Made by a program: the position numbers and the translations under genes
The notes under the pieces: model-generated
What the model was told of the DNA's origin: nothing
What the model saw: only the letters and a program-made list of their open reading frames with translations
Databases searched by the model: none
Shown: positions 37,401-58,494 of the stretch, one piece after another
Position numbering within the stretch: the first letter of the stretch is position 1
Layout of the letters: the number at the start of each line of letters is the position of its first letter
Origin: Candidatus Heimdallarchaeota archaeon
GTDB lineage: Archaea > Asgardarchaeota > Heimdallarchaeia > JABLTI01
Length of the DNA stretch: 64,000 nucleotides
Direction of reading: 5' to 3'
Assembly: GCA_018238155.1 (NCBI GenBank)
Contig: JABCTZ010000011.1
Span: 32,001 to 96,000 of the forward strand

Positions 37401-37422
37401 TTTTTGAAATGGAAAACTGAAA

Positions 37423-38991: not shown

Positions 38992-39160
38992 ATCCCCAAA
39001 TGTTAATTAAGTAATTTACTAAAAAAAGTTATTTTCATAAAATTTCCGTCGTAATCACTAATGAACAATGTTGCTATCTATCATTTTTTTTAATGCTAGA
39101 CTTTTATTAATTGATGTTTTTTTTGACTTTTCACTTATTTTATTCTCTTCTAAAAAAGAA

Positions 39161-39182
39161 AAGGAATCCCAAAAGATTCCCT
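39161..39182 (-). terminator. Hairpin plus U-tract after the peptidase gene
   Basis: AAGGAATC-CCAAAA-GATTCCTT followed on the minus strand by TTCTTTTTT. Confidence 0.55.
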
Positions 39183-39190
39183 TATCTATG

Positions 39191-40105: not shown

Positions 40106-40430
40106 TTTTAATTCCTCCCCTCTTTCTTAATCAAAAGAGTTCAATGTACAATAACAAGGTAATTATATTTAAGACTTCTTGATATCTATGCTTAGATTGT
40201 ACTTACTGAATAACTATTTAGATTTTGTCAGACAAGTAATAATAAAACCGTTATTATCAGTAATGCAAGTCGAAATCAGCAATGGTTTCATATCATGAAT
40301 TTACTTAAGATTCTTCAATTCCATTGTATGAAAATAACACTAAACAATAAAAGATTTTTGTGAGTCGAGTAAGATGGGTTCAGATGCTACCTCAATAATG
40401 ATTTATTGAATTCGCGGTTTTAGTGAAATC

Positions 40431-41330
40431 CTATTCTTGTAATTGATGTTTTGCTCTGAAATCTTCCAAACCATGAAATTCCATTATCTCATCGATAATC
40501 ATTTTTGCTCCTTCATTATTGTTATAGAGAAAGTCTAATTTCTCTAGAAGAAATCTGGAAGCATGTGGTATTTCTTGAATATAGGAGGAAAATGTTCGAG
40601 CAACAGCTGTAATATATTCATCAATTTGATAATCAAGCGTCATGAATTCTAATAATGGATTAGCAATGAGTTCAAATTGATCGGGAAAATTGGAAAGACT
40701 GTCAATAGCTGATTCTTTGATATCAATGATCCAATATTCGGAATATTCTGGATCAAATGTATCATTAGTAGATATTATTGATGTTCCACCATCATGTCCA
40801 GCAAAGTAGGGGTCCTCAAAATAATGTTCGTCTAGGGCAAGGATTTGAAGAAAAATGGGGATAAGTGATGGGTTTTTGTCAGTATGTGAAAGACGATTTA
40901 AAATCTCAGTAGATTCATAACGCATATCCATATGATTCTCTTTGTTAAGAATAATTCGACGAGAAATTTCAATACTTCTAGCTTGAAATTCTTTCATATG
41001 ATAAAGAACATAAGCTAACCGATATAAAATATAAGGACATTCAGTATCATCCTTCAAGAGATTAGTAACAAAAGAGGGTATGACTTGAGCTATTTCTATG
41101 ATTTTTGCAATAATAAAAACTAAACATTTTCTATTGGTAACATCAACTTCCTGTTCAAGCTGGGCTAACAGGAACTCAAAAATACTGGAAATAAAATCCG
41201 GCTTTATATTAATGGTTGAATTTTCAAAATATTGGAAATCAATCGCTAAAACATCTATTCCTATTGCTTCACAAAGCTGCTCAATAATTGCATCACCTTT
41301 ATCATCAAATTGTAAAACTTCATCAATCAT
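40431..41330 (-). CDS. Acidic HEAT/alpha-solenoid-like hypothetical protein
   Basis: MRYESTEIL and IKESAIDSL helical repeats. Confidence 0.55.
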   Translation of the reverse strand: MIDEVLQFDDKGDAIIEQLCEAIGIDVLAIDFQYFENSTINIKPDFISSIFEFLLAQLEQEVDVTNRKCLVFIIAKIIEIAQVIPSFVTNLLKDDTECPYILYRLAYVLYHMKEFQARSIEISRRIILNKENHMDMRYESTEILNRLSHTDKNPSLIPIFLQILALDEHYFEDPYFAGHDGGTSIISTNDTFDPEYSEYWIIDIKESAIDSLSNFPDQFELIANPLLEFMTLDYQIDEYITAVARTFSSYIQEIPHASRFLLEKLDFLYNNNEGAKMIIDEIMEFHGLEDFRAKHQLQE

Positions 41331-41360
41331 TAGAAATCCTCACTCTTTCCTAGTGTTATC

Positions 41361-41536
41361 TTCTTTATAAAATACTAAATGAAAGCCAAAAATTAGTGAA
41401 TTGTAATATCAGACAAAGAAAGGGAAAGAATATTTCTCATTTAAATATCAAATGACTCTTTACTCCCTTTTTCTTTTATTTCAACAATTTTGTTTCTTTT
41501 TTCCCCTTCTACTTAATATAGAAATAAAAACAAAAA
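41361..41536 (+). repeat. 176-bp direct repeat, copy 2
   Basis: Matches 37155-37330; contains TTTATAAA about 35 bp upstream of the 40431-41330 start. Confidence 0.95.
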
Positions 41537-41661
41537 TATTCCAGAGCTAAGTGTTACAAACATCTTAATTACACAATCTTAAAAAATATGGGAAACGATA
41601 AAAACATGCGGTGTAGGCACAAATTTTAATAATTTCTAAGCAATCAATATTTAGTATTTAA

Positions 41662-44598
41662 ATGAGAAGGAAGTGGCTAATGATAAAGGAAATTGAAAGT
41701 AAACTTGAAGAATTTCTATCTTTTGCAAAAAAATTGTCTGGTAGAGAAAAACAAGAAGCCCAAACTTTCTTGAACCATTTATTCGAAGCATTTGGACATG
41801 AAGGGGTTATTGAGTGTGGAGCTTCTTTTGAAACCTCAATAAAAATCGAGAACAAAACCTATTATGCAGATTTGTTTTGACCTGAAAAAGTATTAATAGA
41901 AATGAAATCAAGAGGGGAAGATTTAAACAAACATATAAGTCAAGCTAAATTCTACTGGATAAATATCTATAAAATGCGACCTTCTTATGTCATTTTGTGT
42001 AATTTTGATGAATTTTGGATATTTGATTGGAACAAACAACCCGATCCAATTGATAAAATACATATAGATAATTTAGTAATTAGATGGAGAGCTTTATCAT
42101 TTCTTTACACTGGTGGAGATATAAAACCTATATTCAATAATGATAGAGTTGCTGTTACAGAAGTAGCAGCACAAAAAATAGCAAAATTATATTTGAGTCT
42201 AATAAAGAGAGGTGTAAGTCATGAAAAAGCTCAAATGTTTACACTTCAATGTTTAGTTTGTTTTTTTGCTGAAGATACTGGTTTATTTCCAGTCCGAGGT
42301 TTTTTCACAGAATTAATCCAAGATTGTATAAATGGAGCTAATAGTTACGATCTTTTTAAATTACTTTTTACTAAGATGAATTCAACAAAAAAAGAAACAG
42401 GAGGTAGATTTAAAGAAGTTTCATATTTCGATGGTGGTATTTTTGAAATCATACAACCTATTGAATTAAACAAGAGTGAATTGGAAAATTTACTCGCAGT
42501 AGCTCTTCATGATTGGTCTAAAATCCAACCTGCTATTTTTGGCAATATATTTGAATCAAGTCTAAGAAAAGATGAACGTCATAAATATGGTGCTCATTAT
42601 ACAAGAGAATCAGACATTATGAAAATAATTGAGCCAACTATTCTGCGACCGATTAGATTAAAAATTAATGAGGTAAAATCACTAAAAGATTTGGAGAAGA
42701 TTTGGATTTCTTTAAGTAAAATGAGAATTCTAGATCCTGCTTGTGGAAGTGGTAATTTTCTCTATATAGCGTTTAGGGAACTAAAATATTTAGAACTTGA
42801 TTTAATACGAAAAATGATAACTGATTATCCATCACTTGAGAAGAAAAAATTCTCTTTACAATCAAAAATTAAATCAACACAATTTTTCGGAATTGATACT
42901 AATCCTTTTGCAATAGAACTTGCCAAAATAACATTATCATTCGCAAAGAAAGATGCAATAGATACTTTTAATGAATTCAATAATCAGCGTTTGTTGCATT
43001 ATGATGGTGAGAGTCCTTTGCCTTTTGATAATCTAGATACAAATTTCATCATTGATGATGCCCTATTTATTGAATGGCCGGTTGCAGATATAATCATTGG
43101 TAATCCTCCATTTCAGTCTAAAAATAAGATGATTGAAGAATTTGGACCAGAATATGTGGAGAAGTTAAGAAAACAATTTCCAGATGTAAATGGTAGAGTA
43201 GATTACTGTGTTTATTGGTTCCGCAAAGCTCATAACAAGTTAAAAGAAGGTGGTAAAGCAGGGCTTGTTGGTACAAATACAATCAGACAAACTTATTCAA
43301 AAAAAGATGGGTTAGAGTATATTATTGAAAATAATGGGACTATTATAGAAGCTGTTTCCACTATGCCATGGAGTGGGGAAGCTCAAGTTCACGTTTCCAT
43401 TGTAAATTGGATTAAGGGAGAGATAGATGAATCTAAGAATAAGAAATTACTATTCTATGATGAGAAAAACCCCAATAATTTACTTGAGGAATATGATCTA
43501 GAATGGATACCTTCTTCTCTATCACAAAAAATAGATGTCATCTCAGCTAAAGAATTGATTACAAATAAGAATTCAGGAACTTGTTACCAAGGTCAAACTC
43601 ATGGACACAGCGGGTTTATTTTATCTCGACAACAAGCTAAAGATATTTTCAAAAGGGAACCTGAAGCAAGAGAAATAATTTTTCCTTACTTAATAGCGAA
43701 CGCAATGCTGGGTAATATAAAATCTCGTCCAGACCGATTAGTGATAGATTTTCAATCGATGTCTTTATTTGATGCACAGAGATTTAAAACCCCATTTAAA
43801 ATAGTAAAACAAAAAGTTCTACCAACAATTGAACAAAAAGCTGATGAAGAAAAGAAGTTATTTGAAAAACTAAAGAAAAAAGATACCGTTCGTCAAAATC
43901 ATTTAAAGAAATGGTGGTTATTTTGGAGAACTAGAAAGGATTTAATAAATCAAATTCAGACTATTCCAAGATACATTGCTTGTAGTCAGGTTGCAAAAAG
44001 ATCAATATTTGATTTTGTCTCATCAAATATTAGACTAAATGCTGCACTAATAGCATTTCCTTTAAGTGATGATTATTCATTTGGTATTTTACAGAGTTTA
44101 TTTCATTGGGAATGGATAAAAGCACGCTGTTCAACTTTGAAAGGAGATTATAGATATACAATAACAACAATCTATAATACATTTCCCTGGCCTCAATTTG
44201 GTATTATAAACGATATTGATATTCAAGATAACTTGGATGAAAAAATTGAACTTTGTATTGATGTAGCAAATAAAGCTAGAGAATTAAGAGTAACGCGGAA
44301 CAAACTAAGAGACGAAAAACATTTGTCATTAAGAGATATGTATAGAACACTAGAATTGCCTGGAGATAATATTCTAAGAAAATTACATGAAGAACTAGAT
44401 AACGCTGTAAGAAAAGCTTATTCCTATGGATTAATAGATACAGAAAAAACTTTTGATCCATTAAAACTACTTCTTCAATTGAATAACGCTTGTAAACATT
44501 TTGAAGAAGAAAATAAAAACCTTATAAAACCTGGGTTGCCATTTTTCTGTAAGAAAAAAGAATTCTATTCAGATGATTGTATAAGTTATCAAATATAA
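41662..44598 (+). pseudogene. MmeI-like type IIL restriction-modification enzyme interrupted by one in-frame TGA (41878-41880)
   Basis: E..EAQTF, ADLF*PEKVLIEMKSRG, GAHYT, LDPACGSGNFL, GNPPF, TFPWP; the two ORFs are in the same frame. Confidence 0.92.
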
Positions 44599-44674
44599 AC
44601 CTAAATATTTCTAGACACTCTTTAGAATTAAATCATTTGTCTACTTATTCTAAAAAAAGAGTCTACAAGAAGGA

Positions 44675-44721
44675 AAAGAGAAAAGAATGTGGCGGACACA
44701 GTAGAATATGAATCCAAGCTC
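44675..44721 (-). repeat. tRNA-Ala 3'-end repeat R3 (degenerate)
   Basis: AAAGAGAAAAGAATG-TGGCGGACACAGTAGAATATGAATCCAAG; 21/29 core plus 14/15 trailer match to R1. Confidence 0.8.
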
Positions 44722-44726
44722 TTTTG

Positions 44727-45596
44727 TTAAATATTAAATAGATCTTTATTTTCCTTCCCTTTTTTAGTAACATATTCCCTTTTTTCTTCATTATAATAAA
44801 TAGTATCAATAGGTAGTATATCTTTAGGTATTGGAGTATTTGCTACTGGATTAATATAGAGAGTTGCTTTCTTATCAGTCAATGTAAACGCATTTAAATT
44901 TGTAGTAATTAAGATAGCACTCACATCACGATTTCTGTAAAAAAAAGTGTTATTTTTTTCATCATATTTTCCAATTTGACCTTCAATAATTAATTGTATC
45001 TCAGATTCTTCAATTGACATAACAAATCCATAAATAGCATCCTTAATTGTTTCATTATCAATTGGTAATCCATTAGTACAGATATTCAAAGCTAAAATGT
45101 ATGGTTTATTTTGTAAAGAATATTTTGCTGGGTGTTTTTTATTTATTGCAACTCTCAATATTTCAATTGGTCTTGTTTCGTGTATCGTTAAGGAACCAAC
45201 TCTTCCTTCTTTTGTTTCCTGTTGTGATTTTTTTTTACTTACTTTTGCTTCAAGATAGAATTTAGTTTGTTTCCGTTTGGCATAAAAATCTGGAGTATTT
45301 TCCTCATTTTCTATATCCGGATGAATTTTAATATCATAACCACTTAAAAATAACATCTCATGTAAATAGAGTTCAAATAGTGCTCCTCTATGAACTCCAA
45401 TTTCATTTGCGATAAATCTTCGGTAAACCTCACAATTTATATTTTCGGGAAATCTATTAAACCATTTTTGTAATCTAAATTTGACCTTAGTAATTTCTGA
45501 ACTATCTGATTCAAGTAAACAACAATACTCAGAATCATTCTTTTTCTTCTCATTACAATTTTCTTTTCGTTCTGAATTAAATAATTTAAGGTTCAC
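44727..45596 (-). CDS. PD-(D/E)XK-family nuclease-like protein
   Basis: LFELY, TPDF, YLEAK. Confidence 0.75.
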   Translation of the reverse strand: MNLKLFNSERKENCNEKKKNDSEYCCLLESDSSEITKVKFRLQKWFNRFPENINCEVYRRFIANEIGVHRGALFELYLHEMLFLSGYDIKIHPDIENEENTPDFYAKRKQTKFYLEAKVSKKKSQQETKEGRVGSLTIHETRPIEILRVAINKKHPAKYSLQNKPYILALNICTNGLPIDNETIKDAIYGFVMSIEESEIQLIIEGQIGKYDEKNNTFFYRNRDVSAILITTNLNAFTLTDKKATLYINPVANTPIPKDILPIDTIYYNEEKREYVTKKGKENKDLFNI

Positions 45597-45604
45597 TGTT
45601 TTTC

Positions 45605-45775
45605 CTAATCCTTTGGATATGATATTTCAACTTCTTTAGTTATAAATATTAAACCGTTGTCGTCTTGTAAGAAGATTAAATCATCTCCTTTACAAAGATC
45701 TAATTTATCTCTTACTGTTTTTGGTAATGTAATCTGACTTTTAGTTGCTAATTTAGCACTTCCGAGAAATTTCAT
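45605..45775 (-). CDS. AbrB/MazE/SpoVT-family DNA-binding protein (not in ORF track)
   Basis: MKFLGSAKLATKSQITLPKTVRDKLDLCKGDDLIF..., GGTG SD. Confidence 0.9.
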   Translation of the reverse strand: MKFLGSAKLATKSQITLPKTVRDKLDLCKGDDLIFLQDDNGLIFITKEVEISYPKD

Positions 45776-45918
45776 TAATTGCACCTATATAATTATTTGA
45801 TTCAAGTAAAATAAACCTTTCCTTAAAATCAATTAAAAATAACAATATTGGTAAAACCCAATAATTTGGGAACCCCTTAAATAAAACCTTCTCCTATATA
45901 TCTATAGGTGATAAGAAA

Positions 45919-48054
45919 ATGGCTCTAGTAATAAAAAACAAGATTTCTTCATACACAAAAGAAAACAGAGTACTCATTTATCAAAAAGAGAAAAAAATTA
46001 GAGGTTCTCATTATAGTATTTATTCGGATGGAACAATAGAGATTAGAGGAAAGCTATTGAGTAGTACTAAATTTACTATACCAAAAGATTTGTTCCAATG
46101 GTTTGAAATCTCCAATCCATCAAGGATATTTTATGTGGAAATCAAATTGTTTCCAATAAACACCTATAGTGCTGATATTAAAGCACGGTTTTTATGCGAA
46201 AAATATGGAACCTTCATTCAATTTTTGGAACAGCTAGATCTAAAGATTGGAGAACAAGTTTTATTTAAACTTGATTTTAGAAATTCGAATATCAAACCCA
46301 CTCCTAAATTCCATAAAACACTAGCTTTGTTAGAATTACATTCCTTACCCTCTATTGAAACTCTAACTTATCTTTTTACTGGCGGTAAAGGGAATCGCGA
46401 GTTCTCTCTCTATAAAGATAACAGAAATGTTCTTTTTGTAAAGGCTAATGGGACGCTAAGAGATGGTGGTTCAGTCTCTCTGTCACAAGAATTGGGATAT
46501 TATATTGAGGATTGGTTTGAAAAAGATCATTTAGTTTACGCTTCCAAGGATAAAGAAGAAGCAAAAATAATAGAATCTAGAATAATTCGAAAAAATACTA
46601 CAAGACATCTTGAAAAATGCATCTATTTTCCTTATCAAGGGAAAAGTAAACCAATTTCATTTGTGATCTCTTCCCATGAATTTCAGTTAACAAGAGATGC
46701 AATTCAAGACTTTGATATCAAACAATCTTTAACAGAAAAAGGAATATCAATAAGTCGTTTTAAATCACATTCTCTTTTAATTGGAAATCATTGTGATTAT
46801 AAATTTGAGGCTAAAATTAGAAAAATTGCTCATCAATTCTCTTCGAATTATGATTGGTTCAATTCTCCTGAGGTTTACTTAGAATTTAATAATCAAAATT
46901 ATACCATTCAAGGAAATTTCAAAACAGTTGACAATATCATTACAGAAAGAAACCTACTAAAAATACTACTAATGGAAATAAAGACATCTGATAAAAATTT
47001 AGGAAGTGAATTAGAATATGCTATTGCGAGTATATTACACACTAAAAGCATGTTTAATCGAGACTACGTTTTTCCTATTCTTTTTATCAACCAAGATACT
47101 AAACGATTGAATGGTAGTTTAATCATAACTGAAAATTTCGGTTTCTCTTGCGGAATTATACTTATTGGTCCCGAAAAGGCATCTTCCCTTCAAGAATCTC
47201 CTCAAAAATTATTGAGTATTTTGAATGATTACACTGAAAAAATGAATATTCTTTCCAAAGAACGGTCAAAACTAATTCATCCCATTTCAGGCAATATAAC
47301 AACAAATATACTTCTGCAGAAAGAGGCATATCAACTTTTAGCTAATTCAAAACTTTCTGAAAACAAGATAATTCCTATTTATTGTTTATTAATGGGAATT
47401 ACTCTTACTGATTTTTGGTTATTATATAGATATTTTAGAGAATCAATTAATAATTGTCAAATGCAAAACCAGAGTGATTTTGGTATTCTTCAAGATGTTG
47501 AAAAGAAATCACCAAATTTAGCAATTTTTGATTATTTACATAATCTTTTAGTGGAAAAGGGCTATTTTGCTCTTTTAGCGCTAAAATCAAAGTTACCTCA
47601 AAATGAAGACTTGCACATTCTTTTACAAAATCAAGATCTCATACTTGAAAGATTCCCAGCTTGTATAAAAATTCGTGACATCTGGAAACGAAAGAGAGGT
47701 AAGGGAACTGCTTATGAACATGAAATAAGAAAGAAATTAATTAAGAATGGATATCAAGTAGCTTCCAATGTTATGCTTTCAAATCTTAGTAAACCATTTG
47801 AAGTTGACCACTTAGCTTTTAAGAATAACGCAATTACTCTTGTAAGCTGTAAAGATAGACGAAATATATCTTATGAACCAGATCTTCCACATTTGATAAG
47901 AGAAGCAGCAAACGTTCTTGAGTTTCGCAAAAACCTTCTTAATATTGATACTGCAATTCTTTATGTAAAAGTCAACCCCAACTTCTTTCACAATCAACAA
48001 TTACTGTTTGGACAGAAACCTTGGGTCAAAAATGTTGAAATAATAATTGAATGA
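45919..48054 (+). CDS. Protein with two PD-(D/E)XK-like nuclease modules
   Basis: FE..VDNII..MEIKT and GTAYE..EVDHLA..VSCK; GGTGA SD. Confidence 0.65.
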   Translation: MALVIKNKISSYTKENRVLIYQKEKKIRGSHYSIYSDGTIEIRGKLLSSTKFTIPKDLFQWFEISNPSRIFYVEIKLFPINTYSADIKARFLCEKYGTFIQFLEQLDLKIGEQVLFKLDFRNSNIKPTPKFHKTLALLELHSLPSIETLTYLFTGGKGNREFSLYKDNRNVLFVKANGTLRDGGSVSLSQELGYYIEDWFEKDHLVYASKDKEEAKIIESRIIRKNTTRHLEKCIYFPYQGKSKPISFVISSHEFQLTRDAIQDFDIKQSLTEKGISISRFKSHSLLIGNHCDYKFEAKIRKIAHQFSSNYDWFNSPEVYLEFNNQNYTIQGNFKTVDNIITERNLLKILLMEIKTSDKNLGSELEYAIASILHTKSMFNRDYVFPILFINQDTKRLNGSLIITENFGFSCGIILIGPEKASSLQESPQKLLSILNDYTEKMNILSKERSKLIHPISGNITTNILLQKEAYQLLANSKLSENKIIPIYCLLMGITLTDFWLLYRYFRESINNCQMQNQSDFGILQDVEKKSPNLAIFDYLHNLLVEKGYFALLALKSKLPQNEDLHILLQNQDLILERFPACIKIRDIWKRKRGKGTAYEHEIRKKLIKNGYQVASNVMLSNLSKPFEVDHLAFKNNAITLVSCKDRRNISYEPDLPHLIREAANVLEFRKNLLNIDTAILYVKVNPNFFHNQQLLFGQKPWVKNVEIIIE

Positions 48055-48503
48055 GAGTTAACTATATGAAACAAGATGTTCCTTTACTTGAAAGTTTATT
48101 CGGAACAAGTGATTTACCAACAATTGAAAAATATCTAACAGATGTAGAAGAAGAAACTAGAGCCAAAGCAATATGGGCATTAACGAAATTTTCTGTGGGG
48201 ATAACTTTTGAACAAGTTAGAGAAGAATTAATATCTGCAAAAAAAGACCGAACAAGGATTTTTCTAGCGGGAGCTTTATACCTTCTAAATTCTTCTTATC
48301 AATCACGAGAAATGATTTTCCTTTCCAAATATTATTTACAACATTATTTTGATGTAGAAAAAGAAGAGTTAAAAGTTGATTTTACAGGAGATTATGGACG
48401 TTCAGCAATAGTCATAGGACTTATTCTCTGGGATGTGGGATATGAAATATTTGCAACAAATACCTTGGACTTTTACGGTTTAAATTGGCTAATTGAAAAA
48501 TAA
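48051..48503 (+). CDS. Small HEAT-like protein
   Basis: EETRAKAIWAL, RTRIFLAGAL; ATGA overlap with the upstream gene. Confidence 0.6.
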   Translation: MRVNYMKQDVPLLESLFGTSDLPTIEKYLTDVEEETRAKAIWALTKFSVGITFEQVREELISAKKDRTRIFLAGALYLLNSSYQSREMIFLSKYYLQHYFDVEKEELKVDFTGDYGRSAIVIGLILWDVGYEIFATNTLDFYGLNWLIEK

Positions 48504-48555
48504 ACAGTTTTTCTTTTTCAATATCTGTTTTTGAAGTGGAGAATATAACACTAGA

Positions 48556-50190
48556 TTGGAAGTACATTTTGAAATGAACCAACAAAACTTTCTCACCTGG
48601 AAAACTGATCCATTTCTTATAGATCCAATACCCACAAGGAAAAATGATTGGTTAACTGCGAATAAGCTATTAGAACAAAAAGAGCAGTCAAAAATTTTCC
48701 TCAAAAATGATATCCTCAACCTTTATTCCATAATGGTTCGCAAAAACGATTTTCTTGCCGGAGAACGCCTTATTCAACGATTGCCTTATGTCTCTTTACC
48801 ACCTGATTTAGCTTCTAGTTTGCGTAAACCGTCACTAAAATTAGCTGAGAGATGCCATTACTATTTTCAAGATACTGCTATCAATTATTCTATCAAGAAG
48901 TGGCAGCAAAAGATTATTGATTATACGGAGAAGCAGCATCGACTACCATTTCCTTTATTTAGGATGAGTGATTTCTGGCAAGACTTTCTAATGCAAAAGT
49001 ACGTTCCCTTCCAATCTGCACGAGGAGAAACCTTCCATTTACCAACTATTCTCTCTAAAGATTTAGCTTATTTCTTAGGAGTAGTTATTGGCGATGGTCA
49101 TTTGAACTATTATAATATCGAATTAGTGGACTTTTCCCAAGAGCACACGATTATGTTACAAAAATTAGCCATGAAATTATTTGGTATTGAGGGTGCAATT
49201 TCTGGTGAGAAAAAAGTGTGGTTGTTACATTTGAATAATAAATGGCTTGTACGGTTAGCTAATTTCCTAACGGATCAACCAATTACCGGGAAAAAATACC
49301 ATGCTTTACGCGAACCACTTATTTTTACGTCGGATGAGAATCTTCGATGGGAATTCTGGAATGGAGTATTAGATGCAGATGGCAGCTATAAATCACAGAT
49401 CAATTTCTGTTCTTCATCAAAAAAATTCATAGAAGCATTTGGCTCATTTCTAGATTCATACAATTTTGACTATAAAATACGAGAATTAACCTCTGACTTG
49501 GGGAATGGTTATTCTTTAAATATTAAAGCGAAACATAAACATTTTTTTAGCCAATTCATACAACCAAGACATCCAATAAAGCAAGAAGATTTTTCACAGC
49601 ACTTAAATCGTCAATCAAACAAAAATCTCAATAATCCTACATTCAAGCGTATGTATATTAAAGATATTAATCCTCAGACACTAGTTACTATTAATGATAC
49701 TGCTTTTTTTAATTTCGAACTCATACCTATGCTCAATGTCACAAATTGCACCAGCTATTTACGAAAGTCTCGTGAAACTAACCAATGGACACAGCAAGAT
49801 TTAGCTAATTTTCTAGAAATTCAAAAAGGACGATTAGCAGCATATGAATACACCGGAAATCTCCCTATTGCTTATCTTGTCAAACTTCTTCCAATTATCC
49901 CTAAGAGTACTCCTCATTTAATGCTATTTCTAAAACGGAACAAACATAATTATTTTCGTTCACGAAAAACAATTGCTAAGTTAGATCTAGAACCAACTAG
50001 TAGTTTGCTTTCTTTAATGAAATCATTAGTGTTCTGTAAGGATTATATTACGATTAAAAATAAAAGACCAATTATTACTGAATTGAAAGACCAATTTGAA
50101 ATAGAAATTGTGAAAAAGAATCTAATTAAAAATTCGGTTTTGCATCGATTTATTAAAACATTTTTTTTGCTGAGTACAGAACGAGAATAA
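48556..50190 (+). CDS. Free-standing two-motif LAGLIDADG protein with XRE-type HTH
   Basis: LAYFLGVVIGDG, FWNGVLDADGS; LRKSRE..WTQQDLA.FL......AAYE; no intein splice motifs. Confidence 0.85.
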   Translation: MEVHFEMNQQNFLTWKTDPFLIDPIPTRKNDWLTANKLLEQKEQSKIFLKNDILNLYSIMVRKNDFLAGERLIQRLPYVSLPPDLASSLRKPSLKLAERCHYYFQDTAINYSIKKWQQKIIDYTEKQHRLPFPLFRMSDFWQDFLMQKYVPFQSARGETFHLPTILSKDLAYFLGVVIGDGHLNYYNIELVDFSQEHTIMLQKLAMKLFGIEGAISGEKKVWLLHLNNKWLVRLANFLTDQPITGKKYHALREPLIFTSDENLRWEFWNGVLDADGSYKSQINFCSSSKKFIEAFGSFLDSYNFDYKIRELTSDLGNGYSLNIKAKHKHFFSQFIQPRHPIKQEDFSQHLNRQSNKNLNNPTFKRMYIKDINPQTLVTINDTAFFNFELIPMLNVTNCTSYLRKSRETNQWTQQDLANFLEIQKGRLAAYEYTGNLPIAYLVKLLPIIPKSTPHLMLFLKRNKHNYFRSRKTIAKLDLEPTSSLLSLMKSLVFCKDYITIKNKRPIITELKDQFEIEIVKKNLIKNSVLHRFIKTFFLLSTERE

Positions 50191-50250
50191 TGTTTAGAGA
50201 TGGTTAAGAGTTCCTCTGTCATTTTGAAAAATTGAAGTATTTTGGAAATG

Positions 50251-50372
50251 CTCTCACAGCTCAGAAGTGAGAGTGAATGTTCTTGACCAAAACTCTATCG
50301 CTGAACGCTCCACTCGTGCGACCTAAAAGCCCACGCTTCGGTGGTCTTTTTTAACGGTCGTCTTCGACACGA
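50251..50372. other. GC-richer multi-hairpin element (candidate ncRNA or cis-acting site)
   Basis: CTCTCAC/GTGAGAG; nested TCGTG-CGACC-AAAAG-CCAC [GCTTCG] GTGG-CTTTT-GGTCG-CACGA. Confidence 0.55.
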
Positions 50373-50636
50373 AAACCAGAGAGAAATCAAAGAGATGATT
50401 TTGTCGTGAAAAAATACCCAAGAAAGAACATGAAAATAGGAAAAAAAGCAGAAAAAGAGATTCTAAAGGGACTTAGAATAACCTTCCGCTATACAAAAAG
50501 AAGCCTTCTCCTGCCTTATTTTCAGGCTGATTTTTCGAGACTTTTTGTTTTTTGACGAATTCTTAACATACAGTAAATTCTTGTTTCTGTTTTTTGGCGA
50601 ATTTTGTGCTTTTTAAACAAAATTTGATAGAATTAG

Positions 50637-51275
50637 GTGAGAATAATGACTTTGGAATCATCTGTGACGCAAGAACAGCATATTCATAAGGATTTATCTA
50701 GTGCTAAAGTTAAAGTGACAAACACAGTTCAAACTTTCTGTAAATACTTAATTGACAGCGCATTGAATCATGGCAGATATTATTATCCTTCATTGAATAC
50801 TTTCAAATTTGATGAGAAATTGACATTAGTCTCAAGAACAATAGATCGCTTAGTGAGATTTTTAGTTCAAGTTAATATTCTAACTAAATTAACACGATCG
50901 AAAACACAAGCTTATCAAGTCAATGTCAATAATCCATTATTCCACCTTATTTTGAGAATATATCATCCTGTTCATCCAATTACCATTTGTACAAAACAAG
51001 ACATCATTTCAATAAAAAGAATTGAAGAACTACAAAGCGGTGTAGAGCACTTGAAACATGTTTTTAGTCTATTAGAATCAAAAGAGGATCATAGATTAGA
51101 ACTTCATAGAGATTTGTTGGATGAAATAACTGAATATACTACAGTCTCAGATATTTCAACAGAAGATCTAAAAGAGAAATTAAGGTCAATCATCTTAGGC
51201 TCTAGCACAAGTGCAGAGATTAACAACTTTTCCATATTAAATGAATTTTTGCTAGAGTATAACAAGGGGGATTAA
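50637..51275 (+). CDS. wHTH + coiled-coil protein, first gene of the Cas1-like operon
   Basis: SRTIDRLVRFLVQVNIL...YQVN..NP; AGGTGA SD. Confidence 0.65.
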   Translation: MRIMTLESSVTQEQHIHKDLSSAKVKVTNTVQTFCKYLIDSALNHGRYYYPSLNTFKFDEKLTLVSRTIDRLVRFLVQVNILTKLTRSKTQAYQVNVNNPLFHLILRIYHPVHPITICTKQDIISIKRIEELQSGVEHLKHVFSLLESKEDHRLELHRDLLDEITEYTTVSDISTEDLKEKLRSIILGSSTSAEINNFSILNEFLLEYNKGD

Positions 51276-51276
51276 T

Positions 51277-52842
51277 TTGGGATTCATAAACACTCTACCT
51301 AAAGCCATCACTACCGTTCTTCGAGATTATTCTTTTCCTTCTGGTGTTGATAAAGACACCATTCGCAAAGCTGTTAGGTGTGATGAAGACCTGCTTTTTG
51401 TTACACCAGATCTAGATGAGCAATTGCAGGTTGCAGTTACTTTAGCTCTTCTAAATGCTCGATTTGCCGACTCATCATCTATGATTATTGTGCGAACTTC
51501 TGATGATGCAAGAAAAATATACAGTATACTCAACCCACAACATCAGGTTAACGTTTCTAGTGATAGTGTAACAAATGAAACTATTTCTCCACCAATAGAT
51601 AAATATGCCATTCGTGTTGCTTCCACTTTTTCCAAATTTAAGGGAAATAGCTTCTCTTCAGCTAATGATTGTATAATAATTACAAGCTATGATTGCTTGC
51701 TTCGAAATTTACTCTATCGAAAAAGTTCCGAAGTGGATTTAAAGAACAGAATTACTTTACCACATACAAATGCCTATATTTTCGTTGACCCATTTGGCGA
51801 AAATAGATCTCTACGAAGAGCTTTAGAGAGCTTCATAACTTTTGATATAGATAGCATATTGTTTTTCAAGAGAAGAACAAATAACCTTAACATCAGAATG
51901 CATTATATCTCACCTGGCATAGTTTCTTTAGATGAACAGAAGAATATGCTAAAAGTAACATCAACAGTCAAAATTTCTGGAAATCTTGAGCTTGACTTTA
52001 GTTTTTCAACGGATAGACATGACATTAGAGAAAATCTCCAATCTGTTCTACCATATTTAATGTTATTAAGACTTTATTCTGGGCATCCAACTAAAAAACA
52101 ATTAACACGTCGAGTGCAAAATTCGGTTAATTATCGTTTACTTCAAAACACTCACGAATCAAAAACTAATCCTGAATTTCTTCAGGAAGTTTTAATTGAG
52201 ACATTGTTTCAATCAACTGATTCTACTGAATGCTTATTTGAATCGTATCAGCAAAGTCTTGGAAAATTCGCTCTTGCATTAAGAGCTAATGGAAATTCAG
52301 GAAAATATATCCTCACACCATTTGGCAAGAAGTTTCTCATAGCCTCAACATATTTTAAAGAAATACAAGATGATCCCATTAGTGTTATATTGGATATTAA
52401 AAACAGAACACAGAATGATATTCTAGATTGGAACAGCATCTCAGAAATATTCCATAATTTTACTAATGGAAAATTAGCTTACGATGATCTGCAAATACTG
52501 CTAGGGATATTAAAAACAGAAGCGAATGTTGAAGATGAGACAATTGCTAACATTCTATCCAGAACACAAGATAGTTATTCTGTTTTTAAAGTCTGTAGAT
52601 TACTTGCAAGCTTTCAGGATCATATGACACCTGAAGCAAAAAAGAGCTTCAATATCATTAGCAAGGCATTAGGGCAAAATCTTGACACAGTAAATGAACC
52701 GTTAGTAGGAAAGAAAGATAGATTAGCAATCGAGCAAGCGATAAAAGAAGAACTAGAATTTGCTACAGATCCAATGACAAAAGCACAAATTGCTCTAAAT
52801 CTCTCATTATTGAGTTCTGATGTAAAACAAGCAATTGGTTAA
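51277..52842 (+). CDS. Degenerate SF2 (Ski2/Hel308-like) helicase-fold protein, probably catalytically dead
   Basis: Eroded motifs (LLFVTP, MIIVRT..A..IY, IIITSYD.L), YILTPFG wing, C-terminal HTH; no GKT or DExH. Confidence 0.5.
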   Translation: MGFINTLPKAITTVLRDYSFPSGVDKDTIRKAVRCDEDLLFVTPDLDEQLQVAVTLALLNARFADSSSMIIVRTSDDARKIYSILNPQHQVNVSSDSVTNETISPPIDKYAIRVASTFSKFKGNSFSSANDCIIITSYDCLLRNLLYRKSSEVDLKNRITLPHTNAYIFVDPFGENRSLRRALESFITFDIDSILFFKRRTNNLNIRMHYISPGIVSLDEQKNMLKVTSTVKISGNLELDFSFSTDRHDIRENLQSVLPYLMLLRLYSGHPTKKQLTRRVQNSVNYRLLQNTHESKTNPEFLQEVLIETLFQSTDSTECLFESYQQSLGKFALALRANGNSGKYILTPFGKKFLIASTYFKEIQDDPISVILDIKNRTQNDILDWNSISEIFHNFTNGKLAYDDLQILLGILKTEANVEDETIANILSRTQDSYSVFKVCRLLASFQDHMTPEAKKSFNIISKALGQNLDTVNEPLVGKKDRLAIEQAIKEELEFATDPMTKAQIALNLSLLSSDVKQAIG

Positions 52843-53350
52843 TATTAAAAAAAATAGTTCGTTACCACTAAAAACTGTTACAGGAAAACCACCAATAGGG
52901 AGAAATGTTACGTACTATTCTACAAAAGAAATCCCAGAGCATTTCTATAAAAAATGCGGTGACTGTTACTATTTTAGCAAAAATTATTGCATTTTCTGGC
53001 GACGAGTGAAAGAGACTGCAGAGCGAAAAGTCCCAAAAGACAAAATGGGCTATATTTCAACCTCAATTCTTAGAAAAAATACTGTTGCCTGTGAAGCATT
53101 TCTAGAAGTAGAAACAATGGTGATACATTTCACTATTGATGAATTCAATAAAACAGTAACAAAAAGATTTGATGGCTATACTGAAGATGGGGAGGAAAAA
53201 TTTACTCATTTTTGCCCAATCTGTAGTAAGCAAGGAGAAATGGTACCGCTAAAGGCATTAGGCAATGCTGCGTTTCCTCAGCAGGGATCAACTCCGACAA
53301 GATGTCCAAGATGTGGTTCATCATTTAAGCTTTATCAGGAAAGAAATTGA
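52835..53350 (+). CDS. Cys-rich Zn-finger protein (possibly a frameshifted continuation of the upstream ORF)
   Basis: CGDC..C..C, CPIC, CPRC. Confidence 0.7.
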   Translation: MVNIKKNSSLPLKTVTGKPPIGRNVTYYSTKEIPEHFYKKCGDCYYFSKNYCIFWRRVKETAERKVPKDKMGYISTSILRKNTVACEAFLEVETMVIHFTIDEFNKTVTKRFDGYTEDGEEKFTHFCPICSKQGEMVPLKALGNAAFPQQGSTPTRCPRCGSSFKLYQERN

Positions 53351-53366
53351 AACATTTAGTAGTTAA

Positions 53367-54872
53367 GTGATAAAAATGACTGAAAAAAATACTGGAAAAC
53401 AACAAATAAAATGTGTGAAAGATAGCAGTCATATACTTTATGACCGGATATACAATTTAACAGGTTTGGCAGCTGAAGAGATAGAAGAAGCAAGAACTAA
53501 TTTAGGAACTCCTATTTATCAAGGCTATGATGTACGATTGATCGATGATGATCTGTTTATTGGAGATGTAAGGTATAAACTAAAGGATATTAAATTCATC
53601 TTTGATTATGCAGGCATTCAAGAAGAGATTAAACAACGATTGCTTGATTATGGCTGTTATTATGAACGGAAAACTAATTTGAGTGGATGGTTTAATGTCG
53701 AAAGAATCGAGCCAAAAAGAGCTGTTTATGTTGATGCTATTAGATTAAGCAATGGGTTCAACAATCTCTATCTAAAATCAGTGATCAAGAGTGACCTTAG
53801 CATTATCTTCGCACTGCAAGGAATGATACCCGATCAAAGAGTGCTAAAGAAGTATGTAGATAAAATTGGTGATGCATATCTCTATGGCTATCACAGTCAT
53901 GCAAATAAGCTATGCAATTCAGCAGAAGGTTTAGCAGCAGATGTTCTCTGGGAATTCACTAACAAGCTGATAGAACCTTACAACTTTAAAATAAGTAATC
54001 GAATTTCTGACCGACTCTGCCAATTGAGACGCATGGTTGGAAATTATAGCAGTATGGCAAAAACAGCTACAGATGCCTTATTTAACACCACATACCAACT
54101 CTTTGAGGAAGAAATATGGAAGATTCTTGAAGAGAAAAAAATTAATTATTTGGGAGTTGGCGGTTTTTCACATTTCAGTTATTATTCAGACCTTTCTTGG
54201 ATGGGATTGCCATTAGATCTTGGTGATGCATTAAAGAAAGGAGGGCACTATACATTAGTCGATACTATATTAGCTGAAGAAATAACTCATGAAGATATTA
54301 AGCGGCTAACTGCATTCAAAGGAGAGGATAATTATACTGTTACGAAATATGGGTGTGACATCCTCTATGAGAAGAAGGAAGAACTTTTCGAAAGCTCATG
54401 CTTTTATCGTGGGAAACAATATTCATCTTTTAGAGAAGCTTGCAGGGAAGAAATTGACAAATTTGATCGCCTATTATCGAATATCGGTGATAGATTAGAA
54501 GAGGAGCATCTGTCTATTAAAAGCCCTGATCTAGGGAATAATTTAGCCGTTAAACTCTGGCGATTAACGTTAGACTGGGAATATTTGCCAGCAAAATTGA
54601 GGGAGAACCTGGGAGAAAGTGTTTTTCAAATATGTCAAGAAGAGATCCAAAAGCTTGACTTTCAGCCATTAGTATGGATGCGATCGAAACACATAGAACA
54701 AAGAGTGAATCAGGAAATTGCTAATTTTGAGGAACTTGCATTCTTATTTACTGATAGGGAAGAAAAGCACCACCAAAAACATGGCAGAAAAATCGGTCAA
54801 TTATCACCAATCACTAAAGAATTCAGTGAAACATTATTGGAGTTACCTGTATCATGGATAAACTTGGAGTAA
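53367..54872 (+). CDS. cas1: Highly divergent Cas1-fold integrase (Asgard aCas1-like)
   Basis: AEGLAA..W (E187), A.TATDALFNTTY..E (cf. DPVNALLNYGY), GFSH (H269), L.LDLGD (D284/D287), then EIT.EDI, in Cas1 order and spacing. Confidence 0.75.
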   Translation: MIKMTEKNTGKQQIKCVKDSSHILYDRIYNLTGLAAEEIEEARTNLGTPIYQGYDVRLIDDDLFIGDVRYKLKDIKFIFDYAGIQEEIKQRLLDYGCYYERKTNLSGWFNVERIEPKRAVYVDAIRLSNGFNNLYLKSVIKSDLSIIFALQGMIPDQRVLKKYVDKIGDAYLYGYHSHANKLCNSAEGLAADVLWEFTNKLIEPYNFKISNRISDRLCQLRRMVGNYSSMAKTATDALFNTTYQLFEEEIWKILEEKKINYLGVGGFSHFSYYSDLSWMGLPLDLGDALKKGGHYTLVDTILAEEITHEDIKRLTAFKGEDNYTVTKYGCDILYEKKEELFESSCFYRGKQYSSFREACREEIDKFDRLLSNIGDRLEEEHLSIKSPDLGNNLAVKLWRLTLDWEYLPAKLRENLGESVFQICQEEIQKLDFQPLVWMRSKHIEQRVNQEIANFEELAFLFTDREEKHHQKHGRKIGQLSPITKEFSETLLELPVSWINLE

Positions 54873-55093
54873 TGCTCTTTTTGCTAAAGGAGTACAATGA
54901 ATTTGGCACTATTCATCCAAAGAGCGCAAAAGAGATCTCTATAGAGGTGGAATTGGCTCCCAGTGAAACATATCTTACTCTTGAGACATTACAGCAAGAT
55001 GGATTGATCTGGCGAGTGGGTAGGAAAAATCTTTACAGGTATGGTATTAAGGAAGAATCTTTAGCTCATCTAAACAAGCTATTCTCTGCTTAA
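54854..55093 (+). CDS. Small winged-helix protein
   Basis: SAKEISIEVEL.PSETY..LE.L..DGLI....RY. Confidence 0.8.
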   Translation: MDKLGVMLFLLKEYNEFGTIHPKSAKEISIEVELAPSETYLTLETLQQDGLIWRVGRKNLYRYGIKEESLAHLNKLFSA

Positions 55094-55107
55094 TTAATGG
55101 TAAACAA

Positions 55108-55404
55108 TTGCCGTCTGAGATGTTAATTGATTATCAGAAGCTTGATGAAGTAGCAGAAAATTATGAGAAGAAGTTTGAGATAGAGAAACAAGAAGGGCTC
55201 CTTGTGAAGGAGATCAAGGCATTGCTTAGTCAACTGGTCTTTATTGAATATAATAACCGATTCGACATGATTGATTCAGCTGTTGATGATATTGTTGAGG
55301 CTTGTTCTCCTGAAAATTTAGATGAAAAATTCGAGCAATTTTTAGAGGATAAGCTTGAATCAATTTGGGAATATATTATCAGTGCAAGATTGGTGGAGGG
55401 ATAA
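55108..55404 (+). CDS. Small acidic helical protein
   Basis: 98 aa, tightly packed in the operon. Confidence 0.65.
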   Translation: MPSEMLIDYQKLDEVAENYEKKFEIEKQEGLLVKEIKALLSQLVFIEYNNRFDMIDSAVDDIVEACSPENLDEKFEQFLEDKLESIWEYIISARLVEG

Positions 55405-55407
55405 GGA

Positions 55408-57735
55408 ATGTCTCGAGGAATTCTTGTAAAATCGGTTTTTGATTTGCCACCATCAGTGTGTAAAGTATCTGATTGCTATGTAGGCGATGACGAAGTTGGA
55501 TTAGAGAATATAGGAAAAAGTATCCAAGAGCTATTCTCACACAAGCTCTACTCTTATCAATTAGAAGCAATTAGAACTGTACTCAAAGGAAATGATTGTT
55601 TCCTTGCTGTTGGAACAGGTTCTGGAAAATCTGAAGCATTTTTATTCCCAATTTTGGAGGATATCGTTGCCGGAAAAATTAATTGTGCGATTATAATTTA
55701 TCCAACAAAACAACTAGCAGAGGATCAAGAACAACGCATTGCAAAATACTGCAATAAGATTCATGAAACGACCGGCAAAAGAATTACTTACAGTAGGTAC
55801 AATGGTGATTTAACTCGAAAGGAAATTGACTTTGTAGAAAAAAGTAAACCAAATATTATTCTTGCAACTATTGACAAATTATTTTATCGTTTCTTTAAGG
55901 AAGGCAATGAAGACTTTCTTGATTGGCTGCTCAATGCTGGTGCTTTCGTTGTTGATGAGATTCATGCCGGCTCAGGAGGATATTTAGATCATGTTCGAGA
56001 AATAATTTCAATCTTGAAAAAGATTAATCCAACTTTAAGAGTTATTCTTGCTTCCGCTACTGTAAAGGAAGTGGAAACTTTTCGCGATAAATTTCTCCCA
56101 TCAGCTCAAATAATTACAGGAAATGCTACAAGAGGTTCTGTTAGAGTGATGATTCTTCAGCCAGAGTCAATAGAAGATCTGCTTTTGGAAAAGATAGACC
56201 CCTATTTGTGCAAAGTAAAAGGAGTTTGCGTAATTTTTGTTGATGATATTCGAAAGGTAGGTGAGTTGGTTGCAAAATGTAATGAACTGTATAAGAAAAA
56301 AACAAACATACCTGATGAAATCCTAAGAATACATTCACCATTTGCTTGCATTAATAGTCAGTTAAATAGTCAAGAGAAAACATACGTTGTAAAAGGAGTT
56401 CATAATGGTACAATTAGGTTTGTGTTTACAACGTCCTTATTGGAACTGGGGATGGACATACCAAATATCGTTCATATAATAAATATTTCTTGGCCCATTA
56501 CGGGAGTTAATGGTCTATTGCAACGATTGGGGAGATTGCGATTTGTAGACCTTTCCGAGAAAAAGAATTTCTCATTAGTGCTAAATCCAGAAAGAACAAT
56601 TGATGAATATTACTTGAGCCATCCTGAAAAAATAGAAGAAATCATGATGAAAAACAAGACTGAACGAATATTATTTGACTCAAAATCATTGCAAAGAGCA
56701 CAAGCATTCGTTCTCTTAAGACTTGTTCTTGGTGTAACTAAAATTAAAGATATCTTATCCCTATGCACAGATGAGCTAGATAACGGAATTACACGAACCG
56801 CAATATCATTACTTTTCGCCAAAGGTTTGTTATCAACTGAAAATCATCACTTGCCGTTTCTGGAAAGAACCTTAATTATAGCAGAAAGAAATGAAGTTAA
56901 TGCTTTTATTCGAAAGCATCGTATTCGCTCAACTGAATACCAATGGGAAATAATACTGAAGAATTCCAAAAATCAAGAAGAAAAAATCGCTTCAATAGAT
57001 GAACGACGAATAATCTTTTCAGCTTTGCAAAGGAATTTGTTACATCTAGGAAGCAAAGGGAATGTTTTTCGAGTAAAAAGTTTGACTAATGAAAAAGTGT
57101 TCGTTGAAAAGCTAAATATCATCAAAACAAATATTGAACGAAACAAAGTAAAGCCACCAATTTTTATTATCGATGGTCAATCTAGAACGCAGCAATTTGA
57201 ACAGCTAAATATTAGATTTGGAAGGATGATCATTCGCTGGGAAACAAGTGAAATAAAGGAATATTCTCGAGATGGACAATTACTTGAAAACCAAATGAAA
57301 AAGTCAACTCAAGGAAATGACACATTAGTAGTTACTGATAATGAAAAGCGTCAAAATCACATTTGGGATGAAAAAACAAGTGGAGTGCTCATAGAATTTG
57401 TGAACATCTCAAAAGCTCTTACCAACAAACAAAAGAAACAATCACTAAGGCTATTTAGAGAATTACTGGTGAAAAGTATTGAGCTAGAGCTTCACATCTC
57501 AGAATCATCATTTCGCACATATTTGAATAATTTTGAAAACAAAATTGCTCTTTATGATCGAGGTGGGGAGCTGGGAAATGCTGAAGCAGTTTTCACACAA
57601 ATAAAACGAGTGCTAAAGCACATGCTCAGCTTATTGCTTGAGAATACAAACGACTCTATACTCCCTCTAGTTGGCAATATCTCGGAAAAATCAATAGAAA
57701 TAACCAAAAAAATGTTAGAGGAGATGGTAAAGTAA
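55408..57735 (+). CDS. DEAD/DEAH-box SF2 helicase (MrfA/Hrq1/Lhr-like)
   Basis: YQ, GTGSGKSEAF, YPTK.LA.DQ, DEIH, SAT, TSLLELGMDI, QRLGR; C-terminal YD..GG.G. Confidence 0.93.
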   Translation: MSRGILVKSVFDLPPSVCKVSDCYVGDDEVGLENIGKSIQELFSHKLYSYQLEAIRTVLKGNDCFLAVGTGSGKSEAFLFPILEDIVAGKINCAIIIYPTKQLAEDQEQRIAKYCNKIHETTGKRITYSRYNGDLTRKEIDFVEKSKPNIILATIDKLFYRFFKEGNEDFLDWLLNAGAFVVDEIHAGSGGYLDHVREIISILKKINPTLRVILASATVKEVETFRDKFLPSAQIITGNATRGSVRVMILQPESIEDLLLEKIDPYLCKVKGVCVIFVDDIRKVGELVAKCNELYKKKTNIPDEILRIHSPFACINSQLNSQEKTYVVKGVHNGTIRFVFTTSLLELGMDIPNIVHIINISWPITGVNGLLQRLGRLRFVDLSEKKNFSLVLNPERTIDEYYLSHPEKIEEIMMKNKTERILFDSKSLQRAQAFVLLRLVLGVTKIKDILSLCTDELDNGITRTAISLLFAKGLLSTENHHLPFLERTLIIAERNEVNAFIRKHRIRSTEYQWEIILKNSKNQEEKIASIDERRIIFSALQRNLLHLGSKGNVFRVKSLTNEKVFVEKLNIIKTNIERNKVKPPIFIIDGQSRTQQFEQLNIRFGRMIIRWETSEIKEYSRDGQLLENQMKKSTQGNDTLVVTDNEKRQNHIWDEKTSGVLIEFVNISKALTNKQKKQSLRLFRELLVKSIELELHISESSFRTYLNNFENKIALYDRGGELGNAEAVFTQIKRVLKHMLSLLLENTNDSILPLVGNISEKSIEITKKMLEEMVK

Positions 57736-57736
57736 A

Positions 57737-58408
57737 ATGCCTGATACAGTAATAATTGGTGATGTTCATCTTGGAGCAGATGGTTGTTTAAAGGAGGAAT
57801 TCAAAGAAGCACTGCTGAGCGTTGCAGAAGAAGTGGATCTAATTCTATTCAATGGTGACTTTATCGATAATTATGGAGAGAAGGGAAAAAAAGCTCTTGA
57901 ACAATTCTTAGAATGGATAGACAATAAAAGTTGGAAAGAAAAAATAGTCTTCATAACTGGTGGTATGGGTCACGAGGGAAATATTCTATTTGATTGTCCT
58001 ACAATTCAAATTTTGCCTTGGGCAATTTTAAACACAAAAGAAGGGCGAATTATTGTCTGTCATGGACATAATATTGGTCTGGTGAAAAAAGATGATGAGA
58101 CGTGGGTAGAAGCATCCTGTCGACTTAAGCAGCGCTTAGTGCGCAATGGTTCTGAGTTCTTGCCAGAGATTTTATCGACAGACAAGATTATTATCAGCCA
58201 CACTCATGTACCATTTTACAAAATGGATAATGGTATGTTTGCAACAGGGGGATGGCGAATAAAAGAGGACTGGTCTGAGGACTATATCAGAAGGAATGTT
58301 GGAGTGTTTATCATAATAGATGATGAAGATAGAGATGACCCAATAAAAATGAAAAGATGGTTAAATGATAAAAAGGGAAGAAAAATTGGTGGACCGGATG
58401 GAATTTGA
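57737..58408 (+). CDS. Calcineurin-like metallophosphoesterase
   Basis: GDVHLG, NGDFID, GHE, HGH, SHTH; last codons overlap the tRNA-Ala 3' end in antisense. Confidence 0.92.
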   Translation: MPDTVIIGDVHLGADGCLKEEFKEALLSVAEEVDLILFNGDFIDNYGEKGKKALEQFLEWIDNKSWKEKIVFITGGMGHEGNILFDCPTIQILPWAILNTKEGRIIVCHGHNIGLVKKDDETWVEASCRLKQRLVRNGSEFLPEILSTDKIIISHTHVPFYKMDNGMFATGGWRIKEDWSEDYIRRNVGVFIIIDDEDRDDPIKMKRWLNDKKGRKIGGPDGI

Positions 58409-58494
58409 ATCCATGGCCTCCTCAATTTTTTTCTTATAGGACGCATCCTTTAAGATTGCAAATGAGGCGATCTACCAGTCTGATCTACCGGCCC
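58387..58494 (-). tRNA. tRNA-Ala(TGC) with a canonical anticodon-loop intron (~31 nt)
   Basis: GGGCCGG/CCGGTCC with G3:U70, CCTCA-TT TGC A-[intron]-TGAGG, ATGGATTCAAATTCCAT, ACCA. Confidence 0.95.

Follow-up and report, generated by a model that had tools for sequence, protein, structure and literature searches.

A six-gene operon with a divergent Cas1-like protein as the probable transposition core of a polymerase-less mobile element in Heimdallarchaeia

The six-gene operon and its Cas1-like protein

The window analyzed here is a 64,000-nucleotide (nt) stretch of a Candidatus Heimdallarchaeota archaeon genome (contig JABCTZ010000011.1, positions 32,001 to 96,000). At 50637-58408, adjoining a tRNA-Ala gene, it carries eight consecutive open reading frames (ORFs), one of which encodes a Cas1-like protein. 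As described in the first-pass annotation, all eight are on the plus strand and tightly spaced (1, -8, 16, -19, 14, 3, and 1 bp between ORFs 1 to 8, negative values denoting overlaps), but the true number of genes is six. These genes are the conserved core of a mobile element of the Heimdall group:

50637-51275, plus strand: gene 1, winged helix-turn-helix (wHTH)-like protein, the fastest-evolving core gene; its language-model features resemble HTH_36, which is no more than a lead
51277-53350, plus strand: gene 2 (ORF2+3), inactive Hel308/Ski2-like helicase with wHTH and zinc (Zn)-binding domains; frameshift near 52833
53367-54872, plus strand: gene 3 (ORF4), predicted divergent Cas1-fold integrase of 501 amino acids (aa); E187, N240, H269, D284, and D287 conserved
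54854-55404, plus strand: gene 4 (ORF5+6), 183-aa wHTH and acidic-domain protein; frameshift near 55082
55408-57735, plus strand: gene 5 (ORF7), intact superfamily 2 (SF2) helicase of the YprA/MrfA (DUF1998) family; C-terminal Cys4 zinc site lost in the clade
57737-58408, plus strand: gene 6 (ORF8), calcineurin-like metallophosphoesterase; GNH motif changed to GGMGHE, altered 3' end reading into the tRNA gene

The spacings of -8 and 14 bp reflect frameshifts and not gene boundaries, because the ORFs on their two sides are fused in homologues and near-identical contigs are intact. In the close homologous loci (n = 9; Cas1-like protein identity of 40 to 85%), ORF5 and ORF6 form a single ORF in 9/9 cases (183 to 188 aa; 172 aa as called in locus L023), and ORF2 and ORF3 form one of 680 to 709 aa in six of the seven complete homologues. 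The ORF2+3 homologue of L017 is broken, but at another position than the window copy, and that of L020 is fused, though truncated by the contig end. The window carries an additional base near 52833 (ORF2/3) and lacks one near 55082 (ORF5/6); restoring the frames across these positions yields stop-free ORFs of 690 and 183 aa. Each frameshift is absent from near-identical contigs (95 to 97%) of three separate studies. The other junctions are conserved, and the 19-bp overlap between the Cas1-like and wHTH genes recurs in seven loci. Thus, the "Zn-finger" and "acidic protein" initially listed as separate proteins are the C-terminal domains of ORF2+3 and ORF5+6, whereas the Cas1 fold of ORF4, the motif-less helicase of ORF2, the intact helicase of ORF7, and the phosphoesterase of ORF8 were correctly called. 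Both frameshifts had been overlooked, as had a LAGLIDADG gene described below.

Because near-identical contigs lack its two frameshifts, the window copy is, judging from its sequence, probably decaying and inactive. The host genes of the assembly are free of frameshifts, and only ORF2/3 was split among 60 orthologue comparisons, so that decay is likelier than sequencing error and a genome-wide indel error is unlikely; a local assembly error is a possible explanation of the two sites. In-frame stops are present in the helicase of two other elements in the same genome, and intact relatives of the broken copy were found (L018, L021, L105, and L117). A promoter scan with a bacterial-type model, applied to this archaeal host, returned chance-level results.

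The six genes form one unit around the Cas1-family gene, as proposed, co-occurring in the same order in 9/9 close loci; this order is largely kept in a genome of another family. When the search was started from the helicase, the Cas1-like gene adjoined in 8 of 11 further loci, and the remaining three stop at a contig edge. The discordant phylogenies that had been named as grounds against such a unit were not seen: the trees of the six genes share three clades, and their pairwise identities track those of Cas1 (rho of 0.53 to 0.92, pairs not being independent; 0.92 for the helicase). In paralogues, ORFs 2, 3, and 4 are fused into proteins of 1212 to 1215 aa, and the helicase is fused to the phosphoesterase in proteins of 1050 to 1063 aa. 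These fusions define two modules, an integrase module consisting of the dead Hel308-like helicase-wHTH-Zn protein, the Cas1-like enzyme, and the small wHTH protein, and a helicase-nuclease module consisting of the YprA-family helicase and the phosphoesterase.

The structure model of the ORF4 product (predicted local distance difference test score [pLDDT] of 76) shows the two-domain Cas1 fold, and its top structural matches are exclusively Cas1 proteins. The best Foldseek match is casposase 6opm (E value of 1.4e-9), and comparison with Cas1 4n06 gave a VIA Z score of 20.8 (root mean square deviation [rmsd] of 7.6, 288 residues aligned) versus 7.5 for the best unrelated fold. Profile searches of ORF4 against Pfam, PADLOC, and PDB returned no match; a distant family member matches PF01867 above the cutoff, and an NCBIfam search of the family gave a weak cas1 match in one member and a hisZ match that was dismissed as chance. 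The catalytic residues were assigned by Cas1-like motif order, without residue-level superposition; H269, D284, and an acidic residue at position 187 are present in 18/18 aligned homologues, and position 287 is D or E in 17. As modeled, the protein is a very distant Cas1 relative and the sole integrase-like enzyme of the element. Complex prediction for the Cas1-like protein with the phosphoesterase scored 0.00, which gave no answer and was counted neither way. The window contains no CRISPR array, and no cas2 was detected among the operon ORFs by Pfam or PADLOC; divergent, array-less Cas1 proteins occur in 16 of 400 genomes of the phylum. The nearest relatives are Heimdallarchaeota metagenome-assembled genomes, and low-sensitivity pattern scans of viral and JGI contigs found no relatives.

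Gene 2, also in the integrase module, has a Ski2-like fold: the model of its L016 homologue (mean pLDDT of 66) matches Hel308 2va8 with a Z score of 16.0 (rmsd of 5.2, 343 residues aligned). The Walker A and DExH motifs are missing from all aligned members. The Cas1 domain of distant families is fused to a Ski2-like helicase that is intact and keeps both motifs, suggesting the origin of gene 2; a recent duplication of gene 5 was also considered and rejected, as profile comparison of the two gave no match. Weak similarities suggest wHTH domains in genes 1 and 4, and no homology was detected between gene 4 and the C terminus of fusions of 1358 to 1392 aa.

Gene 5 retains the helicase motifs (GTGSGKS, DEIH, SAT, and QRLGR) and matches 6znp with an E value of 9e-29 along with a second, C-terminal stretch. 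As in other YprA/MrfA helicases, the SF2 core is followed by an OB-CON-DUF1998 region (MZB, E value of 1.4e-6, in homologue L077); the four-cysteine zinc site is absent in the window clade, and the cysteines are present in L027. The phosphoesterase motifs of gene 6 are kept, save the Asn of GNH, and its 3' end overlaps the opposite-strand tRNA-Ala(TGC) gene by 22 nt. At five Cas1-like loci of the source genome, a Cas4-like nuclease is present and the YprA helicase and phosphoesterase are missing, and the helicase-type loci carry no Cas4; this either-or split fits a Cas4 analogy for end processing. Both alternatives are absent from some of the distant Cas1-like loci. Helicases of the YprA type work on single-stranded DNA together with partner nucleases (10.1101/2025.09.15.676423).

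The tRNA-Ala island and related elements

The operon is part of an element of ~13.7 kb at the 3' end of tRNA-Ala, within a 25-kb island that is subdivided by copies of the tRNA end:

58387-58494, minus strand: tRNA-Ala(TGC) gene with intron, the integration site
44690-44717, minus strand: degenerate tRNA 3'-end copy (72% over 43 nt) that bounds the operon-bearing element on the left
37366-37399, minus strand: middle tRNA-Ala 3'-end copy, which differs in its T-stem allele (a G-C for an A-T pair)
34140-34330: remnant of one end of a related, earlier element, with a phosphoesterase C terminus and the inverted-end motif TATGGAC.AATAGGACA
33383-33417, minus strand: distal tRNA-Ala 3'-end copy, which shares 29 identical nt with the present tRNA and marks the far limit of the 25-kb island

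The site is empty in five relatives (G001, G003, G007, G009, and G011), where the host flanks lie ~180 bp apart compared with 25 kb here. A 43-kb contig joins position 46379 to 58253, with 11.9 kb of the interior gone and both flanks and ends retained, and is thus a deletion derivative. The remnant at 34140-34330 shares 87% identity with the end of the G006 element that faces the tRNA. As a separate observation, the tRNA-Ala(TGC) intron is present in G000, G006, and G010, which have large insertions, and in none of the five empty-site genomes; G004 and G005 have intron-less tRNA-Ala(TGC) genes, yet carry insertions (comparison of window 58387-58494 with L079-L087).

Upstream of the core, the element contains further genes and a noncoding block:

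45919-48054, plus strand: 711-aa protein whose C terminus weakly matches NERD nucleases, a variable member of the element
48051-48503, plus strand: 150-aa partner of the NERD protein, a variable member
48556-50190, plus strand: LAGLIDADG endonuclease-like protein with a C-terminal HTH and both acidic motifs kept, a near-constant companion of the Cas1-like gene
50270-50540: conserved noncoding block without an Rfam match, a candidate for either a structured RNA or a DNA site

The LAGLIDADG gene, with intact acidic motifs, is present at nearly every locus and is shuffled among close elements (rho of 0.01 for its identity versus that of Cas1). Between the two elements at tRNA-Ala, those of the window and of G006, the LAGLIDADG proteins are 65% and the NERD proteins 47% identical, which may reflect either target specificity or plain inheritance of the flank. 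The initial proposal that the HTH and Zn proteins specify the tRNA target is not supported: those of the G006 element are just 23 to 38% identical to their window counterparts, and much closer cores (50 to 81%) are located at tRNA-Pro or beside TnpB. The noncoding block, in the interval between the LAGLIDADG gene and gene 1, is conserved in seven loci whose gene 1 proteins are 19 to 62% identical to that of the window; a long hairpin is possible, with weak covariation (3/23 pairs).

Related cores are located at tRNA-Pro, tRNA-Lys, or tRNA-Ala or beside TnpB. The relatives with 82 to 85% identical Cas1 adjoin TnpB, and the window copy has no TnpB. The TnpB-type sisters possess inverted ends, one with a 4-bp TTGA duplication, and for one sister the empty site was found in G006. 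In G006, the inverted-end motif also lies ~60 bp from the tRNA, and it recurs in the remnant at window position 34257; in that remnant and in L023, the motif is one-sided. The source genome contains eight Cas1-like loci, of which five are <10 kb from a tRNA gene, compared with 15% of random positions (the loci are not independent).

Several other loci differ in architecture. For example, a fused-type Cas1-like element is present at the 3' end of ppdK (G000:C19:18150-38400, comprising L029 and its flank), and elsewhere on C19 (G000:C19:8800-14160) a tRNA-Lys gene is followed by five 3'-end copies that separate small toxin-antitoxin-like cassettes. In L019 (positions 52-117 and 14100-14230), an element lies between two inverted 5' tRNA-Lys halves, one cut in the T-loop, in what looks like an inversion. 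Proteins of 2,600 to 2,766 aa with a Cas1-like domain are encoded at L073:5993-14293 and L074:6698-14500; that of L073 also contains an intact helicase and ~1,400 further residues outside any Pfam family. Finally, distant Cas1-like fusions in L067, L070, L071, and L072 adjoin a RAMP gene (recognized by Pfam in L070, with genes similar to it in L071 and L072 and an unassigned gene in L067); these loci are probably ARAMP-type systems.

The cargo cassettes at 33383-44690 encode an MmeI-like restriction-modification gene, a UvrD helicase, an ArdC fragment, an SBBP beta-propeller, and a peptidase-C13-like protein, the last two of which recur beside other Cas1-like elements. A direct repeat of 176 nt (99% identical) occurs at 37155 and 41361. 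Elsewhere in the window, a truncated TnpB-like ORF lies near a tRNA-Arg gene (774-1256), and a low-GC block (23 to 25%) of unknown genes lies between two tRNA-Arg genes (2760-8917).

Relation to known systems

The window element is a variant of the predicted Asgard aCas1 transposons, the nearest known system. Both possess a very divergent, array-less Asgard Cas1, proposed to be the transposase of repeat-flanked elements. Unlike the aCas1-TnpB elements, the window copy has no TnpB but does have a NERD gene, and it lies within a stack of cassettes at the 3' end of a tRNA gene. Helicase and nuclease neighbors of aCas1 are said to have been shown by Makarova and colleagues in 2020, and parts of the six-gene anatomy may therefore already be published. 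Asgard Cas1 homologues were described in 2020 as possibly linked to new mobile elements (PMC8730458), and in 2023, aCas1 was proposed as the likely transposase of repeat-flanked TnpB loci, designated Cas1H-Asgard-1 and -2 (Altae-Tran et al. 2023, PMC10691335). The accessible portion of the latter text describes neither a two-module anatomy nor tRNA targeting, and Cas1 is not mentioned by Wu (2022). In the available portions of this literature, the Asgard aCas1 elements are computational predictions, and no experimental test was found.

Family-2 casposons, known from Aciduliprofundum boonei and Methanosarcina mazei (PMC5137440), likewise combine a Cas1-solo integrase with insertion at tRNA 3' ends and tandem stacking. 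However, the window element is not a casposon, because no PolB is present among the ORFs of 44690-58408 or in the homologous loci. It further differs in sequence (~15% identity) and in the additional dead Hel308, YprA, phosphoesterase, and LAGLIDADG genes. As to terminal inverted repeats, none were found on the decayed window copy, and the TnpB-type sisters possess them. The casposon duplication, as at the A. boonei tRNA, is 15 bp and is added on the tRNA side (PMC5137440), whereas the window repeats are 30 to 42 nt with nonpolar decay and the TnpB-type sisters have duplications of ~4 bp.

With the YprA/MrfA systems (MrfAB, DISARM, Dpd, Druantia, and ARMADA; 10.1101/2025.09.15.676423), the operon shares a YprA-type helicase followed by a nuclease-like gene. 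In contrast to those systems, the partner here is a calcineurin-like phosphoesterase, a word absent from that report, the pair is tied to Cas1, and the zinc site is lost in the window clade. The tRNA islands of tyrosine integrases also show an intact tRNA, an element, 3'-end copies, tandem accretion, and empty sites in relatives, but no tyrosine integrase (PF00589) was found in the 25-kb island.

Proposed mechanism and alternatives

It is likely that the element is driven by its Cas1-like enzyme, and the reading in which the operon serves Heimdallarchaeia mobile elements of a Cas1 family without a polymerase as their transposition core, with a probably inactive copy in the window, is moderately favored. 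Under this scheme, the Cas1-like enzyme would join the 3'-OH ends of the element to the target by transesterification, while the dead helicase, wHTH, and Zn domains would grip the element ends or branched DNA. The YprA helicase would load on single-stranded tails that the phosphoesterase trims, during excision, while the ends mature, or when integration gaps are repaired, a job that the Cas4-like nuclease may do in the sister elements. Given a Cas1-driven element, the assignment of the helicase and phosphoesterase as end-processing factors, which is made by analogy, is an even call.

Several features of the island weigh against integration by Cas1. No inverted ends were found on the window copy; its repeats are 30- to 42-nt tRNA ends that include the T-arm; the nearest repeat is the most decayed and the farthest matches the tRNA, which is not the polarity of casposase duplication; and the pattern resembles that of tyrosine recombinase att sites, with two such recombinases encoded elsewhere in the genome. 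The tRNA repeats were also considered as a CRISPR-like polar array, a reading that was not favored. At C19, moreover, two 360-bp copies of the ppdK end separate cassettes and are only 70 to 74% identical to the resident ppdK, suggesting that each element arrives with a target end of its own. These observations could be explained if a host or helper tyrosine recombinase integrated the island in trans, with the Cas1-like operon as its cargo, such as a CRISPR-derived (ARAMP-like) system that lacks an array: repeat length, polarity, and the foreign T-stem allele of the middle repeat fit attP x attB, the diverged ppdK copies are incompatible with staggered-cut duplication, and a RAMP gene lies beside distant Cas1-like genes. 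We nevertheless consider this quite unlikely, since the same core is found in TnpB elements with inverted ends and ~4-bp duplications and no other transposase seen, the sites are varied (tRNA-Ala, -Pro, -Lys, -Leu, and -Val, ppdK, and a dehydrogenase gene), and the internally deleted derivative retains its ends. A Cas1-based account of the same repeats, in which a polymerase-free class of elements uses the dead Hel308-Cas1 integrase and the YprA helicase-nuclease to swap in its own target-gene 3' end, is rather unlikely. It would involve homology-assisted, recombinase-like Cas1 integration over 30 to 42 nt of tRNA or 360 bp of ppdK, possibly helped by the noncoding block, and would yield arrays of kilobase cassettes.

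The role of the helicase-nuclease module is open to further objections. The split between Cas4 and the YprA pair is a single evolutionary split between two clades; no YprA helicase or phosphoesterase match was found near the Cas1-like genes of families f28 and f17; and YprA helicases are known mostly from repair and defense (10.1101/2025.09.15.676423). The element could be Cas1 driven while the pair travels with it as a defense or addiction module, a foreign-DNA sensor with a nuclease effector and no part in transposition. DISARM, Dpd, Druantia, and ARMADA are built around a YprA helicase with a downstream nuclease (10.1101/2025.09.15.676423), a family f15 pair lies beside a Cas1-like gene and two perhaps RAMP-like genes (recognized by eye, without a Pfam match), and the island contains the MmeI-like gene. 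This explanation is unlikely, however: where DNA was available, the helicase subfamily was never found without a Cas1-like gene, the helicase tree follows Cas1 (at the rho given above), unlike exchangeable cargo, and PADLOC yields generic helicase matches only. Alternatively, the pair might serve replication or copying out of an extrachromosomal form in place of the casposon polymerase, with gene 1 as the initiator and the noncoding block as the origin. The lack of PolB at every locus examined, the resemblance of gene 1 to HTH_36/RP-C proteins (from language-model features, a lead only), the position of the block just upstream of gene 1, and the element-borne target copies, which suggest a circular form, are compatible with such a role. 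No circular junction was seen in the data, which consist of contigs only, neither a primase nor a known Rep domain is present, and the large-fusion elements have no recognizable gene 1, making this possibility highly improbable.

Cas1 is known from two settings, CRISPR adaptation and polymerase-encoding casposons, and a polymerase-free element in Asgard archaea, the archaea closest to eukaryotes, would be a third. The published proposal that aCas1 is a transposase becomes directly testable. If the Cas1-driven reading is correct, such an element might provide a site-preferring integrase for DNA of at least 10 kb, and its interchangeable modules (YprA-phosphoesterase or Cas4), together with its tRNA-anchored and TnpB-linked forms, would widen the Cas1 route between transposons and immunity.

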